Shown: in pieces, positions 42,457-62,148 of the stretch
Layout of the letters: every line of letters begins with the position of its first letter
Position numbering within the stretch: position 1 is the stretch's first letter
DNA from: an uncultured virus (IMG/VR IMGVR_UViG_3300032462_001943)
Taxonomy: Duplodnaviria; Heunggongvirae; Uroviricota; Caudoviricetes
DNA: 64,000 bases
Virus record (IMG/VR): IMGVR_UViG_3300032462_001943
Reading direction: 5' to 3' (one strand)
Translations under genes and position numbers: made by a program
The notes under the pieces: generated by a model
Databases searched by the model: none
Seen by the model: the letters and a program-made list of their open reading frames with translations, nothing else
Told to the model about the DNA's origin: nothing

Positions 42457-42525
42457 TAGGCTGGAAATAGGACTCCGGTTTGGTTATACTGTTGCTTAAC
42501 ACAAAGAACCCAACCCGGAGTTAAT

Positions 42526-45120
42526 ATGACGCTAGAAATTTGCGGATTTGAACATTTACACCTTCATACGGATTTCAGCACCCTCGATGGCTACGGCATG
42601 GTTGAGGAATATGCGACTCGTGCGCCACTCATCAATCAAAAGTTTTTGACCATCTCAGATCACGGCATGTTGGGGGCCATCCCTCGTCAAATCAAAGCCT
42701 GTGACAAGATGAATGACAAAAAGGGAAAAGATACCCTATCTCCCATCTTCGCCTGTGAATTGTACGTCAACAGGCTTCAGCCCGAATCCAACGGTCTGGG
42801 TGACATGCAGAAGTTCATGGCTGATCTAAATGAAGATGAACAAAAGGAATGCCGTGCAGGATCGCATCTTTTGGCTATTGCCTACAACGAAATAGGCTAT
42901 AAGAATCTGGTCCGTCTATCATCCTGGGCGTGGACCAAGGGATTCTATCGTCATCCTCGTGTCAACTACGAACAGCTTCAGAAGTACAAGGAAGGACTGT
43001 TCTTCACGTCTTGTTGCTACAACAGTGAAGTTGGACGGGCTTTTGACCAACACGGTGAAGACGCCGCTTTCGCTATGATCGAGCGATATATTGAGATGTT
43101 CGGCAAGGAACACTACTTGCTGGAAATCATGTTGCTCGATTTTGAAAAACAAAAACCATATGACGCCTTCATTATCAAGGCTAAAGAAAAGTATGGTTTG
43201 AAATTGATCCTCACCAATGACTGTTTAGTCGATGGAACTTTAATTTGGACACATTTAGGTTTTCAACTTATTGAAAACTTAAATGTTGGAGACATGGTTC
43301 TTACACATAATAATAGATATCGTCCTATTGAAGTTAAAGTCAGTCGTAAACTAAATCATGATGAAAGAGTTTTTGAAGTCAAAGCAACTGCTGGCACTTT
43401 TTCTTTTCAATCAACTGGAAATCACAAAATTTATGTAAAACAAGGGGTCGATTTTAATTGGATTAAAACATCGAATTTAAAAAAAGGCGATTGTTTGGTT
43501 TATCCTGATTTTTCAAAATGTTCATTTTTTTCCAATCAAGATTTAGATTACATTGATCTTAGTGAATTCATCGAAGATGAAGATTTGTATTCTGAAGTAA
43601 CATATTCTAATAGACATAATTTGCGATGTGGCTTGCGTGAGAAGGACGGATATTATTTATCCCAAAGAGGATTTAGCGGCAATTCCACAGTTAAAATCCC
43701 GAAGTTATTTCCTGTAGATAAAGAATTTTGTCGAGTATTAGGATGGTACATTGCTGAAGGTTGGAGTGACACAAATTCGTACCAAGTTGGTTTTGCTCTT
43801 TCTATTCATGAACAAGATGTTGCTGATTTTTTAATTGCTTATTTTTCCAAATTTGGCATCAAAGTGAAGCAATATTCTGTTTCTGAAAATGGGATTGCCA
43901 TTAGATTTTCTAGCAAGGTATTCAATAGGGTTTTATCTAAAATATGTGGCAAAAAGGCTCTTAACAAACATTTGCCTTATATTAGTGGAACTTGGATTGG
44001 TAAATTCAGTGAAAGTCAATTCAAGCAAATTATAGCTTGTCACCAGTTTGGTGATGGAAGTTATTTGAATGGAGTTTTTGCTTTTCACAGCACAAGCAAG
44101 AAATTGATTTTTGAGATAGCTTCTGTGTTAAACGCAATGGGATTTCCGTCAATTCCATCGGTTGATAAGAAAAAAAATGTTAATTGGAATCAATGTTGGC
44201 ATTTGAATTATTCTGGCGACGCCGGGAAAAAGCTAAGCAATTTTCTTTGTGGTGTATCACAGGATACAGGCAATTCTTCTTTGTGGACTTACGAGAATGA
44301 ACATTGGTTGATTAAAATTCAAGAGGTCAATGAAATTGTTTACCAAGGAAATGTTCATGATTTTCAAGTTAAAGAAGATCATTCATTCACGGCAAACATG
44401 GCTGTAGTTTCTAATTGTCACTACTGCCAAGCAGAAGACAGTCATTTTCAGCGGCTTATGTTGATGGTTCAAACGGGACGTACTCTGGAAGAGATCAAGA
44501 GTGCTATTGCCCAGGATCAGATGCAAGACTTCTTTGAGCTTCAGGACGCCAACCTTTGGATGAAGTCTGAAGAAGACCTGAATGCCAAGTGGGAGAAAGA
44601 CTATAAGGATATTGTGCCTTATGAGCTTTTCTGTGAAGCCAAGCGAACGACTGTCGAAATCTGCAATAAAGCCAAGGGTGTTCAGCTTGATCGCTCGCTT
44701 AAATTGCCAGTCATTCCAGATGCCGATGAAACTCTCAAAGAACTCGTCATGCGTGGCTTCAAGTGGCGTGGTTTGCCACAAACCAGAGAATATACAGATC
44801 GCATCAAAGAAGAATACAGTCTCATTACCCGCAAGGGCTTCTCCAGTTACTTCTTGATTCAAAAGATGATGACAGATGAAGCACGACGGGTGTGTGTAGA
44901 GCTTCTGGGGTTTGGTGATGGTTCACAAGCTGTCGGTCCAGGTCGAGGCTCGGCGGTGGGCGCATTGACGTGTTATTGTTTGGGCATCACGAATGTAGAC
45001 CCTATCTATGAAGGGCTGTTGTTCAGTCGATTCATGAGCGAAGCTCGTGGTGGTCGAAGTATTGTTCTTGAGTTCAGAAACATGGACCCGCTCCCTCCAG
45101 AGGATGCGTTTGCAGCTTAA
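42526..45120 (+). CDS. dnaE: DNA polymerase III alpha, N-terminal part (PHP domain through GRGS/F.RF), intein-containing
   Basis: HLHLHTDFSTLDG, SDHG, TND|CHY, GFSSYFLI, GPGRGSAVG, LLFSRF; ends before PDxD. Confidence 0.9.
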   Translation: MTLEICGFEHLHLHTDFSTLDGYGMVEEYATRAPLINQKFLTISDHGMLGAIPRQIKACDKMNDKKGKDTLSPIFACELYVNRLQPESNGLGDMQKFMADLNEDEQKECRAGSHLLAIAYNEIGYKNLVRLSSWAWTKGFYRHPRVNYEQLQKYKEGLFFTSCCYNSEVGRAFDQHGEDAAFAMIERYIEMFGKEHYLLEIMLLDFEKQKPYDAFIIKAKEKYGLKLILTNDCLVDGTLIWTHLGFQLIENLNVGDMVLTHNNRYRPIEVKVSRKLNHDERVFEVKATAGTFSFQSTGNHKIYVKQGVDFNWIKTSNLKKGDCLVYPDFSKCSFFSNQDLDYIDLSEFIEDEDLYSEVTYSNRHNLRCGLREKDGYYLSQRGFSGNSTVKIPKLFPVDKEFCRVLGWYIAEGWSDTNSYQVGFALSIHEQDVADFLIAYFSKFGIKVKQYSVSENGIAIRFSSKVFNRVLSKICGKKALNKHLPYISGTWIGKFSESQFKQIIACHQFGDGSYLNGVFAFHSTSKKLIFEIASVLNAMGFPSIPSVDKKKNVNWNQCWHLNYSGDAGKKLSNFLCGVSQDTGNSSLWTYENEHWLIKIQEVNEIVYQGNVHDFQVKEDHSFTANMAVVSNCHYCQAEDSHFQRLMLMVQTGRTLEEIKSAIAQDQMQDFFELQDANLWMKSEEDLNAKWEKDYKDIVPYELFCEAKRTTVEICNKAKGVQLDRSLKLPVIPDADETLKELVMRGFKWRGLPQTREYTDRIKEEYSLITRKGFSSYFLIQKMMTDEARRVCVELLGFGDGSQAVGPGRGSAVGALTCYCLGITNVDPIYEGLLFSRFMSEARGGRSIVLEFRNMDPLPPEDAFAA
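43222..44415 (+). mobile_element. Intein (398 aa) with in-frame LAGLIDADG endonuclease in the PHP domain
   Basis: ND|CLVDGTLI...TGNHK...LGWYIAEG...FGDGS...VHDFQV.EDHSF...VSN|CHY; AT-rich. Confidence 0.9.
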
Positions 45121-45893
45121 ATTTTGTCTATCGCATCCAGAACTTTCCTGAGCGGCACTTGGTTATTTTCGATGTAAAAGAATTGGTATTGCTTTGGATC
45201 GCAACACGGTAGCGATGAGTATTCCATTTTCAATATCTCTGGCTCATCGCATTGTTCTGCAATTACTTCTCTGTGCCAATTGTGTTTTGCTAATGGTTTT
45301 TCATCAGGCATCGCAAGTATCATTCTTGGATGCTTGATGCCTCCGGCGTAGTGAGTCGTTCCTGTGTCTGTGCCAAGAAATATCTTGCTTCTGCGGACGT
45401 AGTTGAACGTATCGTAGATATTTTTGCTGTAGATGACACCAGGATGCTCGATGTTGATAATGTGCTTTTTGCGGGCGTCGATAACCATGCAGACCTTTTC
45501 ATGGCGACCGCATAGTTCTTGGAATGTTTCAAGAGCGGACTCTGGGGATATTTCTCGTTCTATGTTATATCCAACTGCCAATACTGGAATGAACACTACA
45601 TCTAAATCGGTTTCTTCTTCTCTGTAGTGATTCTTGAGATCGGTCCAGATGCCCTTTTCTCGCAGCAACGGGTTCCAGAACCACATATTGTAAGGCTCGA
45701 AAATTGGGTATTCAAAATGATTTGCTGAGGCAAAAACCACTAGGTTGTCTGGGAATAGTTCAATTGCTGAAACAAAGGGATTTGAGTCTTTGTAATGGAC
45801 ATCGTGTCCTTTGAGATTCAAATATTTGATTAAAGCGGTAGTTTGAATTTCATCGCCAATACGATATTCTGGATGGTCGTGGTAGTAAATCAT
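45117..45893 (-). CDS. GT9-like glycosyltransferase
   Basis: RIGDEI, FLGTDTGTTHYAG. Confidence 0.6.
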   Translation of the reverse strand: MIYYHDHPEYRIGDEIQTTALIKYLNLKGHDVHYKDSNPFVSAIELFPDNLVVFASANHFEYPIFEPYNMWFWNPLLREKGIWTDLKNHYREEETDLDVVFIPVLAVGYNIEREISPESALETFQELCGRHEKVCMVIDARKKHIINIEHPGVIYSKNIYDTFNYVRRSKIFLGTDTGTTHYAGGIKHPRMILAMPDEKPLAKHNWHREVIAEQCDEPEILKMEYSSLPCCDPKQYQFFYIENNQVPLRKVLDAIDKI

Positions 45894-45905
45894 CTATTGT
45901 CCAAT

Positions 45906-45938
45906 AAAAAAGGCAGGTGAGAAATCTCACCTGCCTTT
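45906..45938 (-). terminator. Intrinsic terminator
   Basis: GGCAGGTGAGA/TCTCACCTGCC stem with a T-run on the minus strand. Confidence 0.85.
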
Positions 45939-45961
45939 AATTATAGTCTGTTATTTACAGC

Positions 45962-47044
45962 TTACATCCCGCCGCCCATTAGTGCAGGATGACCCTTCAT
46001 TGCAGCCATCAGATTGTGATGTGCGCTCTTCTTTTTTGGAGGAGCAATCTTGCCAATCTTATCGTGAGGAGGAGCCGGAGGTCCACCCATGTCATCGCCA
46101 CCCATGTCGTCATCATCGTCGAGTCCTAGATCATCGTCGCCTAGATCATCGTCTTCATCACCCATGTCGTCGCCCATGTCTTCATCATCCATGTCGTCAT
46201 CGTCGTGCATGTCATCTGGATGTGGCATTTCTTCGTCATCGCCCATTCCCATATCATCGTCGTCCATGCCCATCATTCCAGGATGAGGAATTGGCTTCTT
46301 TTTCTTCATTTTGTGCATTGGCGGTCCACCAATATCGCCGCCACCATTTTCATCTCCCATTGGAGGAGCAACCATTTCATTCATAGCCTTGGCGAGTCTT
46401 CGAGCGTACATTTCATCACGCTCCATCAGAATGGCTAGAGCCTTGAAGGTTTCAGGATGATCGACCATTTCCTTGACCAATTTGCCAAACAAGCCATTTC
46501 TCTTCATTTCACGAACCAAAGCGGAGACGTACTTCTGGTTGCATTTGCAGACAGCGATAGTTTCTTTGATTGAGTTATGAGGAGATTCTTGGCAGGCACA
46601 TTCATCAAGACCCTTGAGCGCTTCTGTCCGAACTGTTTTTGTGAATTCAGCTAGAGACATACCTTTAGTGCGATCAACCCATTCCTGAGTTTTGGTCTTA
46701 GGCCAAGTGGCTTGTTTTTTGCCACCAGGGACACCGTTTTCGTCTTTGCTGACGCCGTTTTTTCCACCATACCAACCATAGCCCGGTTCGTATTTGAGTT
46801 TAGAATCGCCCTTATGAGCAAAGCCATCGCCCAATTTGCCTTTATTGGGGTCTTTAGCGTCAGTCCCACCCTTGTAAGGTTTGACTTCGCCATCTTGACC
46901 CTTACCGCCAGCGTCTTTGTGTTTCTTCTCTTTAGCAGGTTTGGTTTCGATACTTCCCTCGAAGTCGGCAATCTGCTTGACAGTGCTGGAAGTTTTCAAC
47001 TTCTTGTTGCGATCTAAATATTCTTGAAATTTCATGTGTGCCAT
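45962..47044 (-). CDS. Hypothetical protein with a long Asp/Met-rich tract (possible head internal/scaffold protein)
   Basis: MKFQEYL N-terminus; acidic low-complexity region; GGAG RBS. Confidence 0.65.
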   Translation of the reverse strand: MAHMKFQEYLDRNKKLKTSSTVKQIADFEGSIETKPAKEKKHKDAGGKGQDGEVKPYKGGTDAKDPNKGKLGDGFAHKGDSKLKYEPGYGWYGGKNGVSKDENGVPGGKKQATWPKTKTQEWVDRTKGMSLAEFTKTVRTEALKGLDECACQESPHNSIKETIAVCKCNQKYVSALVREMKRNGLFGKLVKEMVDHPETFKALAILMERDEMYARRLAKAMNEMVAPPMGDENGGGDIGGPPMHKMKKKKPIPHPGMMGMDDDDMGMGDDEEMPHPDDMHDDDDMDDEDMGDDMGDEDDDLGDDDLGLDDDDDMGGDDMGGPPAPPHDKIGKIAPPKKKSAHHNLMAAMKGHPALMGGGM

Positions 47045-47185
47045 AAGATTGTCTCCGTTTTCTTATCTAGTGTGCTGTTGGTGTATTTAACACCAAACTT
47101 CTTTCGTTGGGTAAAGGTATTTTGCTTTCAGAGGATCATAAAAACTCAACTCGAAGGTATATATTAAGAGCAAGAGTAAAACAGG

Positions 47186-47449
47186 ATGGTGAATATGCGT
47201 TTCCGAAAGTTCGATGATTTTTTGAAAGAGCGAGAGGTCAGTGAGTCCTACAGTGGCTCGTTGAATCGCACCGCTTTGGACTACGACAAGAAACTTGCGC
47301 AGTTCAATGCTCGTTTTGATGACCCAAAGCAGGGTGATGAGATCGTCAGGGCTGCGGGATACAAAAGCGTGGGAGCCTTCGTTACTGACCCAGATCAGAA
47401 GAAATGGTCGAGACTGAAGATTCCTGGTCAGCAAAATTACGTCCGATGA
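47186..47449 (+). CDS. Small hypothetical (possible internal head) protein
   Basis: MRFRKFDDFLKERE; TATATA upstream. Confidence 0.55.
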   Translation: MVNMRFRKFDDFLKEREVSESYSGSLNRTALDYDKKLAQFNARFDDPKQGDEIVRAAGYKSVGAFVTDPDQKKWSRLKIPGQQNYVR

Positions 47450-47451
47450 GC

Positions 47452-47480
47452 TTTACAAAGGTGAATCGGAGTGGTAGAAT
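47452..47480 (+). promoter_or_regulatory. Sigma70-type promoter with extended -10
   Basis: TTTACA-17 bp-TAGAAT with TGn. Confidence 0.7.
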
Positions 47481-47482
47481 GA

Positions 47483-47626
47483 TTGTACCTGACCGAAGGA
47501 TGCTTGGTCCGAAAGGCCCTTTTCTTAGCGTACAGGCCCGCTTCCGAAGGTGAAATGATCGAAACGCTGGTTAACCAATCTCCAGATTTCGGCTTTCACT
47601 GAATTGGTTGTGAAAAATTGGTACAA
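47483..47626 (+). ncRNA. Candidate structured RNA abutting the tmRNA 5' end
   Basis: Four nested complementary segments; no ORF. Confidence 0.45.
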
Positions 47627-48002
47627 GGGGCCGTCCCGGTTTCGACGGCGGTGGATGAGGTTAGAGTGGCACGCAGACGTTGATCGAAAGGCGTCTCAAA
47701 AATTCGATCAAGCCTTAACTGGCGAAACTGTTAAGTTCCCAAGTGCTGCTCCGGCAGCACTTGCTGCCTAAGCAATTAGGCACTGACTGAGAAAGCGCCG
47801 CAAGTAGCGTTCAAAAGTCAGCCGCAAAATCTTGCTGGTCTGAAGGTGGGCGACTTACCTGAAGACGAGAAAATAGGTCGATAAGGCTGATGGACCTTTG
47901 CTCGGAGTGGTCCCGAAAGCCCGACAAATGAACAAAGAGACAAGCGTGTAGAGGCTTTAATTTTGTTATCGCCACACAGGGGTTCGACTCCCCTCGGCTC
48001 CA
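47627..48002 (+). ncRNA. ssrA: tmRNA; tag GETVKFPSAAPAALAA* (47721-47771)
   Basis: Acceptor stem GGGGCCG/CGGCTCC-A with G3:U, TTCGAC D-like loop, T-arm AGGGG-TTCGACT-CCCCT, TAACT before the resume codon, tag ending ALAA. Confidence 0.93.
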
Positions 48003-48016
48003 TTAAAATTCGCATG

Positions 48017-48050
48017 ACCTCCACTACTATAATGGTAGTGGAGGTTTTTT
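48017..48050 (+). terminator. Intrinsic terminator after the tmRNA
   Basis: ACCTCCACTAC...GTAGTGGAGGT-TTTTT. Confidence 0.85.
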
Positions 48051-48278
48051 ATGCTTGTGTATTGTTGTGTGTGCAGAAAAGAGTTTGAAAGACTCAATCT
48101 TGAAGACCTAAAGCAACAATGGGATTCCCAGAAGGGAAGAAGTTCTTCGAGAATTTGCAAAAGCCGTTATGAAACGCTGAGATGATCTTTTTTTTTGCTA
48201 ATAGCCCGCTCTTTGAGCGGGCTATTTTCATTTCATGGGCTTGTTTTTCATACATACCACTACATCAAGGAGGCATGT

Positions 48279-48932
48279 ATGTCATTTAACAATATTGATC
48301 GTGGAGGATATGTTCCACCATCTGTAAAAAAGCAACAAGACCATCAGCGGGCTAAGTTGGCGAAAGACTTCAAAAATAGAACTGTATTTTTGGAAACAAA
48401 AATAGAGTCAGGAGCCGTTAATAAAACAGTTGCCAAAAAGAATTCTTTGTTGACTCCCAAGAAGCCTGATATGGTTTGGAAAGAAGGTGCTTATTTGGCA
48501 TCTTCTGCTGTGGAACAGCAAGAGCATGATAGAAAGAAAATAGGCGACGTGCCGGTGGTCATTAAGAAACCGGCAAATATACAACCAATGATCTTTGAAG
48601 AAAAACCCGTGGTTTATTCTGATAAGGTGCAAAACTTGATCTTGCCGACCAAGGTGGCTCGCAAGATTGTCAAGTCTGTAGTTTTGTTGACTGGCAGTAA
48701 GCCAGAGTATGAAATTGGACAACAGTATCTAGCAGATTGTGGAATGGATACAAGTTGGGTTTTCAAATGCCCTCCAGAGAAGGAACTCCCAATTTGTGTT
48801 GATAATGAATCAGATGGTGCATGGGTTCCGTTTATAGTCCTGTACCGTGTTGATTATTTTGAATGTAAGTATGTGAAAGAACACGGTCTGGGCAGAGAGT
48901 TCAGTCAAGGCCACGGAGTAGCATACAACTAA
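48279..48932 (+). CDS. Hypothetical protein
   Basis: AAGGAGG RBS. Confidence 0.65.
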   Translation: MSFNNIDRGGYVPPSVKKQQDHQRAKLAKDFKNRTVFLETKIESGAVNKTVAKKNSLLTPKKPDMVWKEGAYLASSAVEQQEHDRKKIGDVPVVIKKPANIQPMIFEEKPVVYSDKVQNLILPTKVARKIVKSVVLLTGSKPEYEIGQQYLADCGMDTSWVFKCPPEKELPICVDNESDGAWVPFIVLYRVDYFECKYVKEHGLGREFSQGHGVAYN

Positions 48933-48942
48933 TGGGAAATAA

Positions 48943-51030
48943 ATGCCAAATACGATAAGAACCGAAGCTGAACTGTTAGCCCTGTTTATTGACAATAATC
49001 AGGGTCTAATTAACGCACAAGACATGCGTGACTTCGTGGTTTCTTCTCGTGTTGGACAAAACTATCCAGGACCACGAGGCCATCAAGGATCGCCTGGAAC
49101 AGTTGGTGGTCAAGGACCGCAAGGTCGAATTGGACCACAAGGCGCTCAAGGCGAAGGATCGACAGTTCAAGGGCCGACAGGAGTTCAAGGGCCGACAGGA
49201 GTTCAGGGACATCAAGGAGTTCAAGGCGCAGGTTTTCAGGGAGTTGTTGGCGAACAAGGTCCACAAGGACTAGCAGGAGTTCAAGGAGTTCAAGGAAATC
49301 AAGGAGTTCAAGGCGCAGGTTTTCAGGGAGTTGTTGGCGAACAAGGTCCACAAGGACTAGCAGGAGTTCAAGGAGTTCAAGGCGCAGGTTTTCAGGGAGT
49401 TGTTGGCGAACAAGGTCCACAAGGACTAGCAGGAGTTCAAGGAGTTCAAGGAAATCAAGGGTTCATTGGTTTTCAAGGACTGGCGGGCGTTGATGGGAAT
49501 CAAGGAAGCCAAGGACTTACTGGCTCTCAAGGTGATGTTGGTTTTCAAGGACTGGCGGGCATTGATGGAAACCAAGGAAACCAAGGACTTACTGGCTCTC
49601 AAGGTGATGTTGGTTTTCAAGGACTGGCGGGCATTGATGGAAACCAAGGAAACCAAGGACTTACTGGCTCTCAAGGCGATGTTGGTTCTCAAGGACTGGC
49701 GGGCATTGATGGAAACCAAGGAAACCAAGGAAACCAAGGACTTACTGGCTCTCAAGGCGATGTTGGTTTTCAAGGACTGGCGGGCATTGATGGAAACCAA
49801 GGAAACCAAGGAAACCAAGGACTTACTGGCTCTCAAGGTGATGTTGGTTTTCAAGGACTGGCGGGCATTGATGGAAACCAAGGACTTACCGGCTTTCAAG
49901 GCGATGTTGGTTTTCAAGGACTGGCGGGCATTGATGGAAACCAAGGACTTACCGGCTTTCAAGGCGATGTTGGTTTTCAAGGACTGGCGGGCGTTGATGG
50001 GAATCAAGGAAACCAAGGACTTACCGGCTTTCAAGGACTGGCGGGCATTGATGGAAACCAAGGAAACCAAGGACTTACCGGCTTTCAAGGCGATGTTGGT
50101 TTTCAGGGCAATCAAGGCGATGTTGGTTTTCAGGGCAATCAAGGCGATGTTGGTCTTCAGGGCAATCAAGGCGATGTTGGTCTTCAGGGCAATCAAGGCG
50201 ATGTTGGTCTTCAGGGCAATCAAGGTTTTCAAGGCAGTGATGCTTCCGTTTCTTATACAAACGCTGCGACCACCCCTTCTACGATTGGTGGCATCCCTTC
50301 AGGATCAACATTTAACTCTCGAACTATGCAACAAATGTGGGATTCTCTCTTGTATCCATATCAATCTCCTGCTTTTTCTTCATTTACGATGTCTGGTCAA
50401 ACCACCAGTGTAGAAGTCGGCGTCACTATATCAGGGACTAAAACATTTACATGGGCAACAACTAATTCCAGCAATATAAACGTCAATACAATATTGATTT
50501 CAGATGTTACAAATAGTGTGACTTTGGTGTCTGGTTCAGCAAATGATGGAACGGAAGCAATTGCTTTGCCTACGGCCATTCAAAAGACGAGTCAGGCATC
50601 TCATCAATGGAGTATTAGAGGCACCAACAGCAATTCAGTGAATTTCTTGGCGACATTCACTGTGTCATGGTTCTGGCAAAGATATTATGGACCAAGTACA
50701 AACACTACTCTCACCGAGGCTGATATAGAAGCCTTGACGAATAGTGGATTGGCAAGCGGATACAGTGGAACTTTTGCATATGCCGGAGGCGGTTATAAGT
50801 TCTTTTGTTTTCCCACTTCATTCGGCTCTCCAGCATCCTTTAAAGATGCGGCTACTAACTTAAATGTGGCTATGGCAAGTAGTTCAGATGATGCTTTTTT
50901 TTCAAATACAGCCAATAGTTTGTCTTACGGTCTGGTATCTGTCACGAATGCTTTTAGTCAAACGACTAATTATCGTGTTTACCGTTCTAAGAACATTCTT
51001 GGCGGGGCCATCTCGATAATAGTGGCGTAA
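48943..51030 (+). CDS. Collagen-like (Gly-X-Gln) fibre protein with a beta-rich C-terminus
   Basis: Long G-X-Y run (QGNQG/QGLAG) followed by a Ser/Thr-rich domain. Confidence 0.85.
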   Translation: MPNTIRTEAELLALFIDNNQGLINAQDMRDFVVSSRVGQNYPGPRGHQGSPGTVGGQGPQGRIGPQGAQGEGSTVQGPTGVQGPTGVQGHQGVQGAGFQGVVGEQGPQGLAGVQGVQGNQGVQGAGFQGVVGEQGPQGLAGVQGVQGAGFQGVVGEQGPQGLAGVQGVQGNQGFIGFQGLAGVDGNQGSQGLTGSQGDVGFQGLAGIDGNQGNQGLTGSQGDVGFQGLAGIDGNQGNQGLTGSQGDVGSQGLAGIDGNQGNQGNQGLTGSQGDVGFQGLAGIDGNQGNQGNQGLTGSQGDVGFQGLAGIDGNQGLTGFQGDVGFQGLAGIDGNQGLTGFQGDVGFQGLAGVDGNQGNQGLTGFQGLAGIDGNQGNQGLTGFQGDVGFQGNQGDVGFQGNQGDVGLQGNQGDVGLQGNQGDVGLQGNQGFQGSDASVSYTNAATTPSTIGGIPSGSTFNSRTMQQMWDSLLYPYQSPAFSSFTMSGQTTSVEVGVTISGTKTFTWATTNSSNINVNTILISDVTNSVTLVSGSANDGTEAIALPTAIQKTSQASHQWSIRGTNSNSVNFLATFTVSWFWQRYYGPSTNTTLTEADIEALTNSGLASGYSGTFAYAGGGYKFFCFPTSFGSPASFKDAATNLNVAMASSSDDAFFSNTANSLSYGLVSVTNAFSQTTNYRVYRSKNILGGAISIIVA

Positions 51031-51042
51031 GGATAAAATGTA

Positions 51043-51537
51043 ATGCCAGCGATTCCAGGCTCAGTAAGCGTAACGGGCATTTTAGCCCCAACAGATACGA
51101 CTGACACATATGCTGTAACCGATCCGGGCTACGGTATTGATGGCTTACGTTCTGTTGCGGACCTAACTGCCCGAAATGCCATTCCTGATGATCGTCGCCG
51201 ATTTGGCATGTTGGTGTTCACTCAATCCGATCAGATGTATTGGACGCTGAAAGTTGGACCCTGGGCAGGAACCAATGCCGACTGGACCGCACTTACGCTT
51301 TCTGCCAGTACAACAGTCGCCTATAGACGAACATTTACAGATGTAGACTTATCGGCGGGCATTTTGTCAGTCACTCATAGTCTTAATCAAAAGTACGTCA
51401 GCGTAACAATTTACGACGATAATGATAAACAAATAATACCAAGCGAGGTATTTCTCCAAAATACAACACAGCTTCAGATTGATTTCACTGGATTTGGCAC
51501 GATTTCAGGAACCTGGAATATTGTTGTGATTGGTTGA
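51043..51537 (+). CDS. Fibre-associated protein sharing the C-terminal domain of the collagen-like genes
   Basis: FT...L..G.L.VTH.L...IYD....IIP...IDFTG...GTW. Confidence 0.7.
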   Translation: MPAIPGSVSVTGILAPTDTTDTYAVTDPGYGIDGLRSVADLTARNAIPDDRRRFGMLVFTQSDQMYWTLKVGPWAGTNADWTALTLSASTTVAYRRTFTDVDLSAGILSVTHSLNQKYVSVTIYDDNDKQIIPSEVFLQNTTQLQIDFTGFGTISGTWNIVVIG

Positions 51538-51587
51538 TGAATACAATTTTGAATTTGTGCTTTTTGAACAGTCAAGTAGTACATACG

Positions 51588-51625
51588 ACTACACAACTAC
51601 ACAACTACACACAACTACACACAAC
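51588..51625 (+). repeat. Intergenic ACTACAC(AC)A short tandem repeat
   Basis: About 4 units of 8-10 bp. Confidence 0.8.
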
Positions 51626-51679
51626 CTATGTAGATGTGAAAAGGGCGAGGCAGTCCGACAATGTTAAAGAGGTAATAGA

Positions 51680-53074: not shown

Positions 53075-53089
53075 GGAGCAAGATAAACA

Positions 53090-54403: not shown

Positions 54404-54404
54404 T

Positions 54405-55724
54405 ATGAAAATAGGATCATTTCAATTCGCAGGAACACGTCTAAGAGACGCCTCTACGATTAACCTTACAAATATAAGTACCAGCTTAACTATTGCTGGT
54501 TCTTATCATTTGATTACGGTGTCCACTGGTGCGTGTACTTTAACGAGTATCAATGGTCCTGCTATCGCCGGTACTACTGTTCAATTTATTTTGACTACGG
54601 GTTCACAGAACTGTACGTTCAATACTGGCGGCAACATCACAGATACCGTCACCCTTGCTGCTGGTGGTATGGTTTCTTATATGTACGACGGAACTGCATG
54701 GATCATTCTCCATACAGATGGACCACAAGGCTCTCAAGGCAATCAAGGAGTTCAAGGCTCGCAGGGCAACCAAGGTTTCATTGGAAGGCAAGGCAACCAA
54801 GGCCATCAAGGAAATCAAGGAAATCAGGGATTTCAGGGCGCACAAGGATTCCAAGGCAATCAGGGACGACAAGGCAATCAAGGCAACCAAGGTTTTACAG
54901 GAAATCAGGGCAATCAGGGACTACAAGGCAATCAGGGAAATCAAGGAACTCAAGGTTTTCAAGGTAATCAAGGAAATCAGGGCAACCAAGGCAACCAAGG
55001 TTTTGCAGGAAATCAAGGCGTCCAAGGAACTCAGGGCGCACAAGGAAACCAAGGATTTGTTGGCAACCAAGGAAATCAGGGCAACCAAGGAAACCAAGGC
55101 ACTCAAGGATTCCAAGGCAATCAAGGCTTTGCAGGAAACCAAGGCGTACAAGGAACTCAGGGCGCACAAGGAACTCAGGGCGCACAAGGCGTACAAGGAA
55201 ACCAGGGCAATCAAGGGTTTGTTGGAAACCAGGGCAACCAAGGAAACCAGGGAAATCAAGGATTTGTCGGAAACCAGGGTGTACAAGGAAATCAGGGCAA
55301 TCAAGGATTTGTTGGAAACCAGGGCAACCAAGGAAACCAGGGCAATCAAGGATTTGTTGGAAACCAGGGCAACCAAGGCGTTCAAGGTTCACAAGGCTTC
55401 CAAGGAAACCAAGGCGCACAAGGAAACCAGGGCAATCAAGGAAATCAAGGTTTTGTTGGCAACCAAGGCACGTTTGGTTGGAATTTAGCTGGGTCGATTA
55501 CTACGTTTACCAATGCCAGTTTATCTTCTGGTATGTTTTGGGATATACACGAAACGTTCGCTTATACACATAGCCGGTCAGCCGACTGTGCCTTCGTTGT
55601 ATATGATAACAATAGCATAGAAATCATCCCAGCAGCGATTACCCGAACTTCTACGACTCAGGTGACGATAGATTTACAGGGTTACACACCGCTAACGGGG
55701 ACATGGACATTGGTAGTATTGTAA
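54405..55724 (+). CDS. Collagen-like fibre protein
   Basis: Same three-part architecture as its neighbours. Confidence 0.85.
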   Translation: MKIGSFQFAGTRLRDASTINLTNISTSLTIAGSYHLITVSTGACTLTSINGPAIAGTTVQFILTTGSQNCTFNTGGNITDTVTLAAGGMVSYMYDGTAWIILHTDGPQGSQGNQGVQGSQGNQGFIGRQGNQGHQGNQGNQGFQGAQGFQGNQGRQGNQGNQGFTGNQGNQGLQGNQGNQGTQGFQGNQGNQGNQGNQGFAGNQGVQGTQGAQGNQGFVGNQGNQGNQGNQGTQGFQGNQGFAGNQGVQGTQGAQGTQGAQGVQGNQGNQGFVGNQGNQGNQGNQGFVGNQGVQGNQGNQGFVGNQGNQGNQGNQGFVGNQGNQGVQGSQGFQGNQGAQGNQGNQGNQGFVGNQGTFGWNLAGSITTFTNASLSSGMFWDIHETFAYTHSRSADCAFVVYDNNSIEIIPAAITRTSTTQVTIDLQGYTPLTGTWTLVVL

Positions 55725-55725
55725 A

Positions 55726-56949
55726 ATGAAAATCTCGATCTTTACACCAACGCATAAGCCGGTCTATCTCGACCGGCTTTTTCGTTCTCTTCAAGAACAG
55801 ACATATTCAAATTGGGAATGGATAATTGTTCCCAACAATGGGGCAGAGGTAGAGCCAATTGATGATGAACGTGTCAAAATATTTCCTTGCAATGATTCTG
55901 ACAATATCGGATTTCTGAAGCGATATGCCGCTGGTAAAGCCACAGGCGAAGTCGTCGTGGAAGTCGATCACGACGACGAGCTTTTCCCAACTGCTATCGA
56001 AGAGTGTGCCAAAGCCTTCGAGGACACAACTGTTGATTTTGCTTATTCAAATTGTTGCGACGTTCGAGAGAATTATGTTCCTCGGTGTTTCGGCCCAGAT
56101 TGGGGTTGGATTAACCGAGTTTGCAAGTTCAAAGAACACGATTTGATCGAAACAGTATCATTTCCTCCCAATCCGGCTTCGATCAGCAAAATATGGTATT
56201 CTCCCAATCATTTTCGAGCATGGCGTAAAGAATTTTACGACCGCATTGGTGGACATGACGCCTCGCTGGACGTGCTTGACGATCAGGATATTTTATGCCG
56301 CACATATATTCAGGGAAACATGAAGCACATCGACAAGCCTCTTTATGTTTATCATCTACACCAGGAAAACACTTGTTACGGAGAAAAGAACGCCAAGATT
56401 CAAGAAGGCACTTTGATTCTTCACGACAAGTACATCTACCAACTCGTTGAGCGATGGAGCGATTTGAATGGTTTGCGCAAAATCGACTTATGTGGTGGTC
56501 ATAGCAAGCCCGAAGGTTATGAAAGCACTGATCTTGAACGTGGCGATATTCTGGCTGACCTGGATGGTCGCTGGCCATTTGAAGATGGTTCTGTTGGCGT
56601 GTTTCGTGCGCATGACGCCATTGAGCATCTGAAGAACCCCATCAACACAATGAAGGAAGCATATCGCTGTCTGGCACCAGATGGTTGGTTCTTAACTCAA
56701 ACGCCATCTACCGATGGTCGTGGAGCTTTTCAAGACCCGACGCATGTTAGTTTCTGGAATAGCAACAGTTTTTGGTATTACACTCGTGCAGAGCAGGCGA
56801 AGTACATCAATACGCCGGTTCGTTTTCAAATGAATCGCATCAAAAACTTTTTTCCAAGTGATTGGCATCAACTTCACAACATCATTTATGTTAAAGCTGA
56901 TTTGATGAAACTCACCGACACACGGGTTCCAGGTGCGGTAGAAATCTGA
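55726..56949 (+). CDS. GT2 glycosyltransferase fused to a methyltransferase-like domain
   Basis: ISIFTPTH, QTYSNWEWII, VDHDD; IDLCGG, WPFEDGSV, DAIEHL, DPTH. Confidence 0.85.
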   Translation: MKISIFTPTHKPVYLDRLFRSLQEQTYSNWEWIIVPNNGAEVEPIDDERVKIFPCNDSDNIGFLKRYAAGKATGEVVVEVDHDDELFPTAIEECAKAFEDTTVDFAYSNCCDVRENYVPRCFGPDWGWINRVCKFKEHDLIETVSFPPNPASISKIWYSPNHFRAWRKEFYDRIGGHDASLDVLDDQDILCRTYIQGNMKHIDKPLYVYHLHQENTCYGEKNAKIQEGTLILHDKYIYQLVERWSDLNGLRKIDLCGGHSKPEGYESTDLERGDILADLDGRWPFEDGSVGVFRAHDAIEHLKNPINTMKEAYRCLAPDGWFLTQTPSTDGRGAFQDPTHVSFWNSNSFWYYTRAEQAKYINTPVRFQMNRIKNFFPSDWHQLHNIIYVKADLMKLTDTRVPGAVEI

Positions 56950-57043
56950 TTGTAAAGCAAAACAAATGCTTATTGCACGTCTTGGCCTTTATCTAATCTT
57001 TGACTTGGCCTATAATCCTTGAACCTCAGACAAGGAGTTATGA

Positions 57044-58120
57044 ATGTCACAAACCGACAGCCAAGAGTTGAACGAAATTTTGAAGAATGCTCCCGAACCT
57101 ACGTCTTACGATTCAGACGACGACGGGAGCTTTGTCATTTGCGGAGAGTCAGCCACGCCAGCCCCGCCATCATTTGATCGTGGCATGGGTGGATATTGCC
57201 AATGGTCCACATCGGACGGCAAGCGATATATCCCTTCCAGCAAGACAGCCAAGAAGCTCACACCGGGCGTTTACGATATTCTCCACAGCAACACAATCGG
57301 TCTTTATTTTGAGCAGATTCCTGTGCTTACGACCGGATTGATTCGGTTTCCAGAAACCAATTCTGACAAGGTTGTATCTGAAATTCAGAAGTTCTGGAAA
57401 AAAGAAAATATCTTCCGCAGTTACAATCTGACCTATAAGCGTGGAATCATTCTTTGGGGTCCACCAGGATCGGGCAAATCTTGTACGATTCAGTTGATTA
57501 TGCGTGACGTTGTGGAGCGTGGCGGCGTCGTCATCAAGTTTACTCATCCAACTTTATTTCTCGAAGGCATTCGCAAGTTTCGAGAAATCCAACCAGACAC
57601 ACCAGTTGTCGTGTTGATGGAGGATATTGATAGCATCTTGGAGATGTACTCTGAGAGCGAAGTCCTCAATATTCTTGATGGTGTCAATCAAATCGAGAAG
57701 GTTGTCTTTTTGGCGACCACCAACTATCCAGAGAAGTTGGGCGCTCGCATTGTCAATCGACCTTCGAGATTCGACAAGCGATTCAAGATCGGCCATCCCA
57801 ATGCCGAGAGTCGTCGTATTTATTTCGAGTACATTATTGGTAAAGACAAGGTGAAGTCCCTCAAGATCAACTTGAATAAATGGGTTGAAGATACTGCTGA
57901 GTTCAGCATCGCTCACTTGAAGGAATTGTTTACTGCCGTCGTTATTCTCGGCGATGAATATGATGACGCAATTGAATCTCTATCTTTGATGAAAGAGGGC
58001 AAGCCAGATTCATCTAAGGACGAAGCCCGAAAAGCAATGGGCTTTGGCACCAACAAGAAGTCTCGACGACATCTACCATCAGATTATAAATTCATGAAAG
58101 AATTAGAGGAGATGGAATGA
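57044..58120 (+). CDS. AAA+ ATPase
   Basis: RGIILWGPPGSGKS, LMEDID, LNILDG, TTNYPE, RPSRFD. Confidence 0.9.
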   Translation: MSQTDSQELNEILKNAPEPTSYDSDDDGSFVICGESATPAPPSFDRGMGGYCQWSTSDGKRYIPSSKTAKKLTPGVYDILHSNTIGLYFEQIPVLTTGLIRFPETNSDKVVSEIQKFWKKENIFRSYNLTYKRGIILWGPPGSGKSCTIQLIMRDVVERGGVVIKFTHPTLFLEGIRKFREIQPDTPVVVLMEDIDSILEMYSESEVLNILDGVNQIEKVVFLATTNYPEKLGARIVNRPSRFDKRFKIGHPNAESRRIYFEYIIGKDKVKSLKINLNKWVEDTAEFSIAHLKELFTAVVILGDEYDDAIESLSLMKEGKPDSSKDEARKAMGFGTNKKSRRHLPSDYKFMKELEEME

Positions 58121-58659
58121 GTGAGCCAATTCTGATCTCGACTGAATATATTCTGGTCATTGATACAGATGGATTCTCCGATGCCTTTGCCAAGAAGCTC
58201 TGTGCGTATTGCACGGGTTTTGTGGACGAAACCGAGAGCGACTTGGAATTCTCTGATCTATATTTTCTGGAAGAAGGCATTGAAGACGACGAGTCCCCAA
58301 GAGGGAAGGTTGCTGATGAAAAGAATCCATTTTATGGCTTTGTTGGTCAGCGGCTTGATGAAGATCAAATTTATTCGCCATGTTGCGTATGGTTGAATAA
58401 AGCGTATGGCTATAACGCCAATGGCGAATACGCTCTCCTGACAGAAAAGAACTTCGATGAGTACAATTTTCCTGCTCCTTTGAGTGTTGGTATTTTTTTT
58501 GATGCCGCTCCTGAATCGGAACATATATTGAAGATCAAGGAACGGTCTGTGAAATTCTTCGAGACTGTCTGGCCAAAGATCAAAGACGGCATTAAGGTCG
58601 GTGTCAAAGATTTCCGTTTGGTGATTCACACCAAATATGGAGAAGAAAAGGAAATTTAG
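58117..58659 (+). CDS. Hypothetical protein
   Basis: ATGA overlap; RBS. Confidence 0.65.
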   Translation: MSEPILISTEYILVIDTDGFSDAFAKKLCAYCTGFVDETESDLEFSDLYFLEEGIEDDESPRGKVADEKNPFYGFVGQRLDEDQIYSPCCVWLNKAYGYNANGEYALLTEKNFDEYNFPAPLSVGIFFDAAPESEHILKIKERSVKFFETVWPKIKDGIKVGVKDFRLVIHTKYGEEKEI

Positions 58660-58731
58660 CTTCCACTAATACGGTTAAGAAATGTGCCTTCCATTGGCAC
58701 GCACATACCTCACAGCGGGTAGGAAGTTGTT

Positions 58732-61700
58732 ATGTCACAAGAATTATTGTTCGATGCTTGTCAGAAAAGTCTTCAATTGCGGGGACTAGATTCTGATCCA
58801 AAATACAAGAAGCGGTTGAAGTGGGAAATAGAAGAAATTGCTGCTCGTAGCAAATCCAGTTATTTCTGGAGCCTATACAACAACCGAACTCGTTATCCTC
58901 AAAATCAAAATAACCTGTTGATCTGTTGGCTTTTGGGGATCGCTCCCGATCACAACATTGACCAAGAGCCAAAATGCGAATACGGTGAATATCCCGACAT
59001 TGACGTGGATTATTTGCCTATTGTGCGTGACTATCTGAAAACAGTGTGGGCCAAAGATACTTTTGGTTCTGAGTATGTCTGCAATATCGGCAATTACACT
59101 ACGTTCGGCATCAAGTCCGCTTTGATTGACATGGCTCGTGTCCACGGGGAAAGCCGAGAAGAGGTTCAGGCTCTTACCAAGAATCTCGACGCCAAGGACG
59201 ATGAAGGCAAAGTTATGACATGGGACGCAGCGATGAAGCTGTATCCTGAGTTAAAGAAGTATTGTGAATTGGACGACAATCACAAGCGTATTGCCGACGC
59301 AGCCAAACGATTGCTTCACCGCAATAGAGGCATGGGCGTTCACGCTGGCGGTTTGATTATTGCCAATGCTCCTTTGTCCGATCTGGTGCCTTTGGTCAAG
59401 AGAAAAGACAGTCCTCAAGCGTCTGCTTGGGTAGAAGGTCTTCACGGTCAGGACTTAGGCCCTATGGGTCTGGTCAAGTTTGACTTGTTGGTTATTGCTA
59501 ATCTGCTTCAGATTGCTCGTTGTTGCGAGATGGTCAAGAAGCGTCATGGTCTGAATGGCATTTGCAATAAGCCGGGCGAACCAGACTGGACTGATGTTGC
59601 TGCTTGGCGTGACGACCCTACGTCGTTGGCTATGGCGAATATCGGTGACTTGAAGTGTATTTTCCAGTTCGATTCAGAAGGTATGCGTGGACTCGTTCGT
59701 GCGGGTGGCGTGGATCGCTTTGAAGACTTGGTGGCATATACGGCATTGTTCCGTCCAGGTCCGCTCGGCATGAAGATGCAGGAGCGATACGTTGAGCGTA
59801 AGCGTGGTCGTGAAAAATACACGTTACATCCGTTGGTACATCCTATTCTTGATAAGACTTATGGAGTTTTGACTTATCAAGAACAAATCATGCGTATTCT
59901 CAACGTGGTTGGCGAGATTCCGTTAAAGGATTGCGAGTTGGTTCGCAAGGCTATCAGCAAGAAAAAGGTTGAAGGCTTCATCAAATACAAAGAGATGTTC
60001 GTTCTCAACGGTCAGAAGAACCTGGGCTGTAATGAGACGGAAATCAATCACTTGTGGAATCAGATTGAAGCGTTTGCCGAATATGGTTTCAATCTAAGTA
60101 TGACCATTGGAACATTAGTACCTGTAAGGGTTTGCGGCGAAACTAAGACCAAGCGGATCGAGGAATTCGTTCCTGGCGACGTAGTATTGTGCGTCAATCA
60201 GGCTGGCGACACGGTGGAGACGCAAGTGGTTGCCTTGCACGATCATGGCGTGTTGCCCGGATACGAGGTCGCATTCGACGACGGATACAAAGTGACGTGT
60301 ACTCTCGACCATAAATTTTTGACTCAAAAAGGTCAGAAATCTCTTCGGGAAATTATCAGAACTAACTCTTCTATTTTGTGTGACCCAAAACACAAAATGG
60401 AGAGTGAAAATGCCGAAGAAAAATACGGATGGTTGGAAGGCTCGATGCGGGATGAGCTTGCCGTCACGGGCTGCGATGTGGACACACACGAAGGAGTGTG
60501 CGACTTGTCAAGAGAAGTCGTTTACGACGGGGGAATGGGAGGAATGGCTGCTGGACACGCTGAAATCCGTGACACCGGGCGTCTGGTGTGTCGGCGGATT
60601 GTACGGGTCATGCCCGTGGGTGAGCGACAGATGTACGATCTTGAAGTCGCCAATTCCACTCACAACTTCCTCTTGCCCAATGGCGTTGTGACGAGTAACA
60701 GCCACGCTGTTGCTTACACCTATATTTCGGCGTGGCTGTTGTATCTGAAGGCTCATTTTCCACATGAGTTTTATGTTTCGATGCTGAGTTGCGAAACTCT
60801 CAGTGAGAAGATCAAAGAATACAAGATGGAAGCCAAGATTCACGGTGTCGATATGAACCGCCTGGACATCAACAAGTCGGATGTAAACTTTGACCTTCAA
60901 GGCGATATTGTTTATTTCGGACTCAGCAACATCAAAGGTTTAGGTGAGGCTCCAGCCAAGCGGATTGTTGCTTCTCAACCATACAAGTCTTTTGAGGATT
61001 TTGTGACTCGGTTCGGCACAGACGCCAGTGTGTTGAAGCCCATCTTGGGGCTGAGATGTTTCCGTGATCGTGACCCTGTGTCTTTGTGGAAGTTCGCTGA
61101 ACATTTCAAGGACTGCGCCAGTAAGATCGAAGAGAAGAAGAAACGTTATCATGTGGCAATGATTAAGTACGATGCAGAGTTCAAGAAACTCTTGCCGTTG
61201 GAGATTCGCACGCTGTCTCAATTGGAAAATGGATTGGAAAATGGATTGGAAAACGTATTCGACAGTGAAGGATGGAAACTTCAGTGCTACAAGGACGAAC
61301 AGATTGAAGTCGATAAGGAAATTCAATGCAAAAAGGACTCTCCAGGTGCTACTGAGCGAATAGTGGTCGAGGATATTGAGGTCGAAGGAACCGGATTGTA
61401 TCTCCAACGTGAAATCATTCAGTATTATCATATCGGCAAAGTCAAAAAGACGTGGAATTTATGGAAAGAATTGAGGAAGTTGTGGCAGCGTAGAAAAAAG
61501 AGCATCGAGCGATATAAGAATATCGAGCGAAGTAGTTTGCCTACGTTGCTCGATTTTGACGCCAATGCTTGGGATATTAACGAAGAATTGATGAAAGAAT
61601 TCCGTGATTCTGTTGCTTGTGAAGAAAAGTATTACGGATTTGCTTGGATTCACGATCTGGAACGTAGCCCGGATTACAAGGGAAATCTTACTTTTACTGA

Positions 61701-62148
61701 TCTAAAGAACAGCATGGACGCAGTTTGTGGGCCGGTGGAGCTTCGTGTCAAGAAGGTGATTAAAACAGCAAGTAAAAAACGGAAAGAATTCATTTACTAC
61801 CAAGTTTTAGCAGAAGATGTGACTGGACAGGAAAACAGGATCAACGTCTGGCCCGATGATTGGGAGTGGTGGCACAGGGAGTTCGGCTGGGAAGAAGTCG
61901 GTGAGAAATCGAAATTCACTGCCGGTAACTTACTTAGAGTACGGCTCCAGCCTCCAACTGGCGGCTTCAATACTTTTACTCTGGAAAGCAATCAGGTTGG
62001 AAAGTGGCGAAGTCAAAAGCGTTATCACGATAAAGCTGACGATCCACGAGTGATGGTTATGCAGAAGGGTCAGAAAGAAGAGGAAAAATTTCTGAGTGAT
62101 GACGAGGCGATGGAGCAGTTCACCAACTGCATTATGGGACAACAATGA
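58732..62148 (+). CDS. dnaE: DNA polymerase III alpha, C-terminal part (palm, fingers, HhH, OB), intein-containing
   Basis: PDIDVD, HAGGLII, GLVKFDLL, IFQF, FRPGP, TYGVLTYQEQ, YGFN|SHAVAY, GLSNIKGLG. Confidence 0.92.
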   Translation: MSQELLFDACQKSLQLRGLDSDPKYKKRLKWEIEEIAARSKSSYFWSLYNNRTRYPQNQNNLLICWLLGIAPDHNIDQEPKCEYGEYPDIDVDYLPIVRDYLKTVWAKDTFGSEYVCNIGNYTTFGIKSALIDMARVHGESREEVQALTKNLDAKDDEGKVMTWDAAMKLYPELKKYCELDDNHKRIADAAKRLLHRNRGMGVHAGGLIIANAPLSDLVPLVKRKDSPQASAWVEGLHGQDLGPMGLVKFDLLVIANLLQIARCCEMVKKRHGLNGICNKPGEPDWTDVAAWRDDPTSLAMANIGDLKCIFQFDSEGMRGLVRAGGVDRFEDLVAYTALFRPGPLGMKMQERYVERKRGREKYTLHPLVHPILDKTYGVLTYQEQIMRILNVVGEIPLKDCELVRKAISKKKVEGFIKYKEMFVLNGQKNLGCNETEINHLWNQIEAFAEYGFNLSMTIGTLVPVRVCGETKTKRIEEFVPGDVVLCVNQAGDTVETQVVALHDHGVLPGYEVAFDDGYKVTCTLDHKFLTQKGQKSLREIIRTNSSILCDPKHKMESENAEEKYGWLEGSMRDELAVTGCDVDTHEGVCDLSREVVYDGGMGGMAAGHAEIRDTGRLVCRRIVRVMPVGERQMYDLEVANSTHNFLLPNGVVTSNSHAVAYTYISAWLLYLKAHFPHEFYVSMLSCETLSEKIKEYKMEAKIHGVDMNRLDINKSDVNFDLQGDIVYFGLSNIKGLGEAPAKRIVASQPYKSFEDFVTRFGTDASVLKPILGLRCFRDRDPVSLWKFAEHFKDCASKIEEKKKRYHVAMIKYDAEFKKLLPLEIRTLSQLENGLENGLENVFDSEGWKLQCYKDEQIEVDKEIQCKKDSPGATERIVVEDIEVEGTGLYLQREIIQYYHIGKVKKTWNLWKELRKLWQRRKKSIERYKNIERSSLPTLLDFDANAWDINEELMKEFRDSVACEEKYYGFAWIHDLERSPDYKGNLTFTDLKNSMDAVCGPVELRVKKVIKTASKKRKEFIYYQVLAEDVTGQENRINVWPDDWEWWHREFGWEEVGEKSKFTAGNLLRVRLQPPTGGFNTFTLESNQVGKWRSQKRYHDKADDPRVMVMQKGQKEEEKFLSDDEAMEQFTNCIMGQQ
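60097..60699 (+). mobile_element. Short intein (201 aa, Ser1) at YGFNL|SHA
   Basis: SMTIGTLV...CTLDHKF...MYDLEV...HNFLLPNGVVTSN|S. Confidence 0.85.
60410..60691 (+). CDS. Small Cys/His ORF in the +1 frame inside the dnaE-C intein (possible endonuclease remnant)
   Basis: GGAG RBS at 60399; CGMSLPSRAAMWTHTKECATC zinc-finger-like motif. Confidence 0.45.
   Translation: MPKKNTDGWKARCGMSLPSRAAMWTHTKECATCQEKSFTTGEWEEWLLDTLKSVTPGVWCVGGLYGSCPWVSDRCTILKSPIPLTTSSCPMAL
61222..61254 (+). repeat. 12-bp in-frame tandem repeat (LENG LENG LEN) in dnaE-C
   Basis: TTGGAAAATGGA, about 2.75 copies. Confidence 0.85.

Follow-up and report, generated by a model that had tools for sequence, protein, structure and literature searches.

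Can a replicative DNA polymerase be assembled from two separately encoded chains that each carry part of its active site? This question is raised by a stretch of 64,000 nucleotides from an uncultured virus of the class Caudoviricetes (IMG/VR record IMGVR_UViG_3300032462_001943), referred to below as the window. The polymerase DnaE, the phage counterpart of bacterial polymerase III (Pol III) alpha, is distributed there over two genes on the plus strand, gene 1 at 42526..45120 and gene 2 at 58732..62148. The explanation that we favour, with a probability of about 0.8, is an ancient and widespread fission of the phage replicative DnaE inside its Pol-beta-like palm, which proceeded by overlapping duplication and reciprocal loss and left a non-covalent two-chain replicase.

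The two genes and the position of the break

Gene 1 encodes 864 aa, comprising a PHP domain, an internal intein and a first palm part with the GS motif and the FSRF/Arg helix. In Pfam searches, the PHP domain (PF02811) was matched at residues 10-202 (E 1.9e-31) and positions 2-98 of the 260 in the DNA_pol3_alpha profile were matched at residues 736-841. The motifs GPGRGS (residues 804-809; 44935-44952) and LLFSRF (residues 831-836; 45016-45033) are located in the functional copy of what will be called the junction module (residues 733-841; 44722..45048, plus strand). The stop codon shares 4 nt with a convergent gene, and a scan for promoters and terminators around gene 1 returned promoters at chance level (10 found vs 11.2 expected).

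Gene 2 encodes 1138 aa and is preceded by a Shine-Dalgarno-like AGGAAG 6 nt ahead of its ATG. It comprises an N-terminal module, the catalytic strand, thumb, fingers, a mini-intein, HhH and a C-terminal region. The DNA_pol3_alpha profile is matched at positions 100-259 by residues 86-253, followed by the finger domain (PF17657, E 3.8e-36) and HHH_6/HhH (PF14579, E 9.1e-13); no OB fold was matched in gene 2 by Pfam. The C-terminal 190 residues align to the nearest single-chain phage relative, P0003, an intein-free DnaE of 1179 aa from the 595-kb uncultured phage LR756511.1. The catalytic strand PDIDVD occupies residues 88-93 (58993..59010, plus strand) and includes D89 and D91, while the third carboxylate is D251 (59482-59484, plus strand); we take D89, D91 and D251 to be the counterparts of E. 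coli D401, D403 and D555. D89, D91 and D251 were invariant in 103/103 aligned gene-2 rows, as were D93 and the residues E32 and N58 of the N-terminal module.

Together the two genes supply the features of a DnaE-type polymerase, namely PHP, fingers, HhH and a palm with G[GS] loop, DxD and third carboxylate, the palm being divided between them. The single catalytic polypeptide typical of DnaE is replaced by two open reading frames (ORFs) 13.6 kb apart. Because the core profile runs from position 2 to 98 in gene 1 and from 100 to 259 in gene 2, the break runs precisely between the G[GS] loop and the DxD strand within a single Pol-beta-like core. The first-pass annotation, which was made from the sequence alone, had described gene 1 as carrying PHP, GPGRGS and LLFSRF and ending before PDxD, and gene 2 as carrying PDIDVD and the remainder; the ORF check and the Pfam profiles bear out this description for both genes.

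Both genes also contain a complete internal intein. The gene 1 intein (43222..44415, plus strand; residues 233-630) begins with Cys, ends with Asn and is followed by Cys at the +1 position, at the site TND|CHYC in the PHP domain. Its borders were set by alignment to the intein-free P0003. It matches the Pfam families Hint_2, Intein_splicing and LAGLIDADG_3, the last of these weakly, and it is missing from several orthologs. The gene 2 mini-intein (60097..60699, plus strand; residues 456-656) has 201 residues, begins with Ser, ends with Asn and is followed by a +1 Ser at the site GFNL|SHAVAY; it is missing from the 94%-identical gene 2 ortholog of locus L004 (L004:5659-8460). Further intein sites occur in other relatives, for example at core-profile position ~293.

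Removal of the inteins would yield a gene 1 product of ~465 aa, predicted to combine the PHP domain with the palm part for the triphosphate of the incoming deoxynucleotide (dNTP), that is the GS loop, the FSRF helix and the next Arg. The gene 2 product would have ~937 aa and would contribute the three metal-binding aspartates, thumb, fingers, HhH and C-terminal region.

Conservation of the split in related phages

Relatives of gene 2 residues 1-454 were present in 13 IMG/VR loci at 52-100% identity. A gene-1 ortholog with an identical end point was located upstream on the same strand in 10 of the 13 (gene 2 identity 52-76%), across a gap of 3.2-9 kb compared with 13.6 kb in the window. The contigs of the remaining three extend upstream of gene 2 by less than 5.7 kb, and the two genes co-occur in all 10 loci with enough flank. 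Related phages, to which the first-pass annotation had pointed as a check, therefore share the split point in 10/13 loci. Among four larger related contigs, G003, G004 and G005 contain DNA_pol3_alpha as the same two pieces with no third match, G004 being 459 kb long and 91% complete; G002 shows the gene-2 piece only, since its contig starts ~5.7 kb upstream of gene 2. PolB was found in 0/5 related records and a small PolA (430-443 aa) in 4/5, the single-chain relative included.

The same arrangement is evident at the protein level. A profile of the first 137 positions of gene 2, searched against 1.84 billion cluster representatives, gave 1104 matches at E<=1e-3, 208 at E<=1e-10 and 95 at E<=1e-30. 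The match lies within the first 60 residues in 144 of the best 150 representatives, and a PHP domain is found upstream in only four of them (P0106, P0123, P0133 and P0141). A search with intein-free gene 1 gave 2231 proteins of 257-819 aa at E<=1e-10. The best 120 of these gene-1-type proteins are 66-95% identical to it and mostly 410-480 aa long, with eight intein-bearing ones reaching 811 aa. The split is an old and very widespread architecture and no peculiarity of one phage.

An origin of the split as an artefact or a decaying gene, whether an assembly chimera, a frameshifted pseudogene or a defective phage, could be suspected, given that the window is metagenomic and that its collagen-repeat region breaks contigs in all four sequencing runs analysed. 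A second IMG/VR record sharing 77% of the window's words has an identical gene 1 end. Contigs of an estuary run from an independent study match 42400-48749, 55424-58359 and 58330-62300 with zero differences, the only contig gaps being at the collagen repeats; as these contigs extend over the end of gene 1 and the start of gene 2, both junctions are independently bridged. Taken with the recurrence of the architecture in 10 more loci and in hundreds of protein clusters, and with the strong conservation of both halves, this already refutes an artefact or decay, to which we assign practically no weight. The first-pass annotation had itself named chimeric assembly between the two loci as a way in which its proposal could fail.

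The duplicated junction and the active site

The first 85 residues of gene 2 (58732..58986, plus strand) form a second, degenerate copy of the junction module, in which the beta1/GS segment is deleted and a conserved N-x-N-N-L-L is present instead; the GS motif occurs in none of the 103 gene-2 rows. Residues 733-841 of gene 1 and residues 12-85 of gene 2 both map to residues ~325-438 of P0003, and the tblastn footprints of the two genes in LR756511.1 overlap by 291 nt. A direct BLAST comparison of the two genes was weak (32% over 44 aa, E 0.02). Comparison by hhalign of 12 gene-2 N-modules, excluding the DxD strand, with 10 gene-1 C-terminal modules gave 92% probability and E 5.4e-7 over 43 columns. 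The resemblance that the first-pass annotation had noticed between the start of gene 2 and the end of gene 1 is thus a real homology.

The gene 1 copy is followed by a tail of 23 residues beyond ...SEAR, GGRSIVLEFRNMDPLPPEDAFAA, which with the stop codon spans 45049..45120 (plus strand). This tail had been described as unrelated, a part of the earlier description that did not hold. A pattern ARGG[RK][SQ]-h-x-h-x-F was found in the tails of 118/120 of the best gene-1-type proteins, the shortest of which end right behind the motif. When aligned by eye with single-chain relatives (ARKDMPDIDVDF and similar), the tail shows the same alternation of hydrophobic residues as the catalytic strand, with other residues in place of the aspartates. 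On this alignment, it is probably a dead copy of the catalytic beta-strand.

Purifying selection still acts on both degenerate copies. For the gene 2 module, column entropy was 2.2-2.3, compared with 2.0 for the thumb region (94 rows). Between the window and L004, nonsynonymous divergence (dN) was 0.071 for codons 23-85 and 0.022 for codons 86-455, both far under the synonymous divergence (dS), which is saturated for codons 23-85.

A duplication followed by reciprocal loss predicts both the overlap homology and the reciprocal retention of catalytic motifs, and these observations support the origin proposed in the first-pass annotation. In this scheme, a segment of ~110 residues round the break would have been duplicated in overlapping fashion, after which the DxD aspartates would have been lost from the gene 1 copy, where the GS and Arg motifs persisted, and the beta1/GS segment from the gene 2 copy, where DxD persisted. 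The two chains would never be joined; most likely they assemble non-covalently to form one active site from both, and the degenerate copies would now probably serve as the interface between the subunits, a form of clasp.

If the halves were instead joined covalently, this could occur by an unrecognized split intein, with a short N-piece in the gene 1 tail and the C-piece in the first 85 residues of gene 2, by RNA trans-splicing of a split group I intron, or by removal of the spacer from the DNA in the course of infection. The gene family is one in which inteins and group I introns are active, with both window genes bearing an intein, many relatives bearing one in GPGRG|S and one ortholog bearing a group I intron. 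Atypical split inteins with very short N-pieces exist.

The junctions themselves argue against joining. In ortholog alignments, neither a conserved nucleophile nor an HN motif was present at either junction: the residue behind ARGG[RK] is S, Q or T, and the residues ahead of YPDIDVD vary (C, S, A, Y, N). An N-intein at the end of gene 1 and a C-intein with HN and nucleophile at the start of gene 2, as in split-intein DnaE, are both absent, and intein profiles in Pfam matched at the internal inteins and at neither broken end, as the first-pass annotation had supposed from the lack of intein-half motifs. The first 45 residues of gene 2 are homologous to DnaE and not to the Hint fold. In Rfam searches, the window yielded no intron that reached the gathering score, and permissive scans of the two junctions gave no intron piece.

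At the DNA level, the gene 1 stop codon overlaps the convergent gene and no repeat links the ends of the two genes, the regional repeats all being collagen-gene repeats. No joint from ~45.1 kb to ~58.7 kb was found in the contigs of the four runs, although contigs drop rare variants. A single joined chain would also hold two copies of the module. The split-intein, split-intron and DNA-excision variants were rejected on the grounds of the variable ends, the missing Rfam piece and repeat and the lack of a joined form, and covalent joining appears highly improbable.

A different objection concerns the active site. Gene 2 alone might be the polymerase, working through its degenerate module, with gene 1 as an independent PHP exonuclease or pyrophosphatase accessory containing a vestigial palm piece. 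Structure prediction gives this some support. An AlphaFold2 model of gene 2 residues 1-454 built from 103 sequences folds confidently by itself, with a mean predicted local distance difference test score (pLDDT) of 90.8 and a predicted template-modelling score of 0.67 (an earlier model from 12 sequences was poor, with mean pLDDT 51.3). The N-module helices 2-16, 23-38, 42-50 and 63-67 have pLDDT 87-98, followed by a weaker linker at pLDDT 64. In fold, the model resembles the Pol III alpha of Taq, E. coli and M. tuberculosis (Z 12.5-18). Residues 84-454 align to 2HNH 398-757 with Z 12.5 and a root-mean-square deviation (rmsd) of 3.9, and with the module included the aligned range reaches Taq residue 355 and E. 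coli residue 287 (Z 16-18, rmsd 6.4-10), placing the module near its native position. The module also has the invariant residues E32 and N58 and the N-x-N-N-L-L motif of its own, and many relatives have interruptions in the N-terminal PHP region of gene 1.

The conservation of gene 1 is difficult to reconcile with a vestige. G-P-x-R-G-S, F-S-R-F and the next Arg are invariant in 10/10 gene-1 orthologs, and the FSRF segment is present in 118/120 wider gene-1 relatives. The GS motif is found in 0/115 regex-classified gene-2 proteins, and both genes are retained in all 10 loci with enough flank. In Pol-beta-like nucleotidyltransferases, the catalytic core includes the G[GS] loop. Iyer et al. 2021 (PMC7824862) assign this part to a nucleoside triphosphate (NTP)-binding subdomain. 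Independent action of gene 2 is therefore considered unlikely, and the shared, two-chain active site is preferred.

Some observations weigh against this preferred reading. The first ~22 residues of gene 2 are fast-evolving and under weak purifying selection (dN 0.47, window vs L004), and dS estimates are noisy on such short gene 2 segments. The HxHxH motif was not called in 58 of the best 120 gene-1-type proteins, and several orthologs are interrupted there; in some of the clade the PHP domain may therefore be altered or recoded. Finally, the predicted monomer puts the gene 2 module roughly where the homologous and better-conserved helices of gene 1 must sit for the gene 1 GS loop to reach the aspartates. 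A swapped-segment clasp, which would accommodate both copies in a heterodimer, is our favoured guess.

The interruptions of gene 1 in relatives are of several kinds. A 7-nt insert stands right behind the His codon of the PHP motif EHLHLH in four loci (L006:4555-4561, L007:479-485, L018 and L021), in the forms TAGCTAT, TAGCTAC, TAGCCAC and TGACCAT, which follow the scheme CAY-[stop codon + C]-YAY-ACN. The flanking codons are conserved with synonymous changes, and gene 1 of the window is uninterrupted at 42553-42580. In IMG/VR, 3/4 matches to the insert pattern were genuine, compared with 10 matches to the uninterrupted pattern. Its sequence suggests either a short hop of the His-tRNA across a stop codon or a +1 frameshift. 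The frame is broken or stopped in the PHP-motif region of two more orthologs, in L010 by a 41-nt G+C-rich hairpin insert (L010:3643-3683) and in L005 by an 8-nt insert (5355-5362) and a 46-nt G+C-rich hairpin insert (5381-5426). An A6 run lies behind the L010 insert, and a -1 slip there would restore the frame. These inserts could be bypass elements, intron scars or assembly indels. The ortholog of L014 contains a group I intron between SDFSL and LDG (L014:2164-2389; RF00028, 98.4 bits, E 3.5e-26), at the site of the 46-nt insert of L005.

The dNTP-binding loop is also an intein site. A LAGLIDADG-type intein is inserted exactly in GPGRG|S in the single-chain proteins P0106 and P0141 and in the gene-1-type proteins P0310, P0332, P0298, P0302, P0315, P0326, P0358, P0365 and P0373. 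This site sits centrally within the segment that is duplicated in the split clade, in the part deleted from the gene 2 copy. Speculatively, endonuclease activity at GPGRG|S may have triggered the rearrangement.

Known systems, the locus and its evolution

Bacterial Pol III alpha (Taq 2HPI/3E0D/4IQJ, E. coli 2HNH/5FKU, M. tuberculosis 5LEW/7PU7) resembles the window system in domains, motifs and fold, but is one chain with no duplicated module. The same difference separates the window from the single-chain DnaE of LR756511.1, which is 46-57% identical to the window proteins and shares all their domains and catalytic motifs. Phage replicases of family B have also been divided. In T4-related Aeromonas phages, gp43 is reportedly encoded as 43A and 43B. 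A split family B polymerase is likewise described for chimalliviruses (PMC13648687). These resemble the window in that a phage replicase is encoded in separate pieces without splicing, but their family and fold are unrelated and no duplicated junction is known to have been reported for them.

The closest precedent is the 'minimal' Pol III alpha of group 2.2 (T4-like) jumbo phages, which the text of Iyer et al. (2021, Viruses 13:63; PMC7824862) describes as split into an N-terminal NTP-binding unit and a C-terminal Mg2+-/DNA-binding unit, encoded in distant genes beside PolB. Both systems have a C-family module made as two proteins from distant genes with no intein, one chain with GS and the other with DxD. 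According to that paper, PHP and the remaining Pol III alpha domains are missing from the minimal module, which occurs alongside a family B replicase. The window, in contrast, encodes a full-length DnaE with PHP, fingers and HhH, its related records lack PolB as noted above, and each half retains a degenerate copy of the junction. Relative to the system described there, the new elements are the full-length DnaE, the lack of PolB, the duplicated and reciprocally degenerated junction and the very wide distribution.

The split dnaE of cyanobacteria and the fractured genes described by Dassa et al. 2009 (PMC2677866) likewise consist of separately placed genes. In fractured genes the halves carry a split intein with a homing endonuclease gene between them, and cyanobacterial DnaE is rejoined by protein trans-splicing. 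The window has no intein halves and a different break site, and in the split clade 3-14 kb of unrelated genes separate the halves, with no match to an endonuclease family among the spacer genes. A search of full-text literature, including passages of PMC7412058 and PMC3919608, found no description of a split full-length DnaE; bioRxiv supplements lay outside its scope.

The 13.6-kb spacer (45117..58731) begins with three genes on the minus strand (45117-47434), followed by a full-length tmRNA gene on the plus strand (47627-48005; RF00023, 109.8 bits) and four consecutive collagen-like fibre genes with G-X-Y repeats that are tail-fibre-like (48943-55724). It continues with a GT2/methyltransferase gene (55726-56949), an AAA ATPase gene of the Cdc48/FtsH type (57044-58120) and a gene for 180 aa (58117-58659). 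The ATPase was considered as a clamp loader and rejected, the protein being a Cdc48/FtsH/BCS1-type AAA. With its collagen-like fibres, ClpP-type protease, SpoVR-like gene and tmRNA, the window appears to derive from the genome of a large tailed phage. In the collagen region, the contigs of all four runs break or are mis-joined, with joints at 49151-54960, 52134-54870 and elsewhere. In two runs, contigs match gene 2 from ~58677 onwards and continue upstream into unrelated DNA (breakpoint 58673-58677), and similar breakpoints lie at 45895-45928, behind the gene adjoining gene 1. These breakpoints indicate that the cargo between the polymerase genes differs among co-occurring variants.

The gene order suggests how the split may have come about. 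In the single-chain relative, the order is SpoVR, hyp360 on the minus strand, AAA and dnaE, while in the split clade it is gene 1, hyp360 on the minus strand, variable cargo, AAA, hyp180 and gene 2. Comparison of the two orders places the 5' part of dnaE across the conserved block, an arrangement that would fit a duplicative move of an overlapping 5' fragment and subsequent reciprocal loss.

Maximum-likelihood trees, built for the core (365 columns) and for the N-terminal part, both unexpectedly placed the single-chain relatives (17-19 rows) inside the split clade, also under LG+C20; the nested sequences are DnaEs of ~590-kb phages (P0003, P0345, P0351, P0362 and others). In the approximately unbiased test, monophyly of the split proteins was rejected only marginally for the core (p 0.038, for a group named after the tree had been seen) and was not rejected for the N-terminal part (p 0.299). 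As the basal branches are long, a rooting artefact is possible, and the nesting reflects either genes that re-fused or a single fission with a misplaced root. We put forward only tentatively, and as a doubtful extension of the two-chain interpretation, that fission is reversible, the single-chain DnaEs being secondary re-fusions inside the split clade, and that the duplicated module is a swapped-segment clasp, in which each degenerate copy (the N-module of gene 2 and the dead strand of gene 1) would pack onto the other chain's functional copy. If true, the C-family active site would form only on heterodimerization, and control by supply of the small PHP/GS subunit would be possible.

The catalytic subunit Pol III alpha is regarded as a single chain, whereas here a full-length replicative DnaE appears to work with the dNTP-binding loop and the metal-binding aspartates on separate polypeptides. 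Since some records label gene 1 only as 'PHP domain-containing protein' (P0288, P0348), the polymerase of such phages can look truncated. The locus offers a clean natural case of gene fission by overlapping duplication and reciprocal degeneration, with both leftovers under selection, and a natural model for dividing C-family polymerases in two. The interval between the two genes acts as a landing site for cargo that can be exchanged, in the window collagen-like fibres, a glycosyl/methyl-transferase and tmRNA. In a very large group of aquatic large phages, the two-gene DnaE is the norm.

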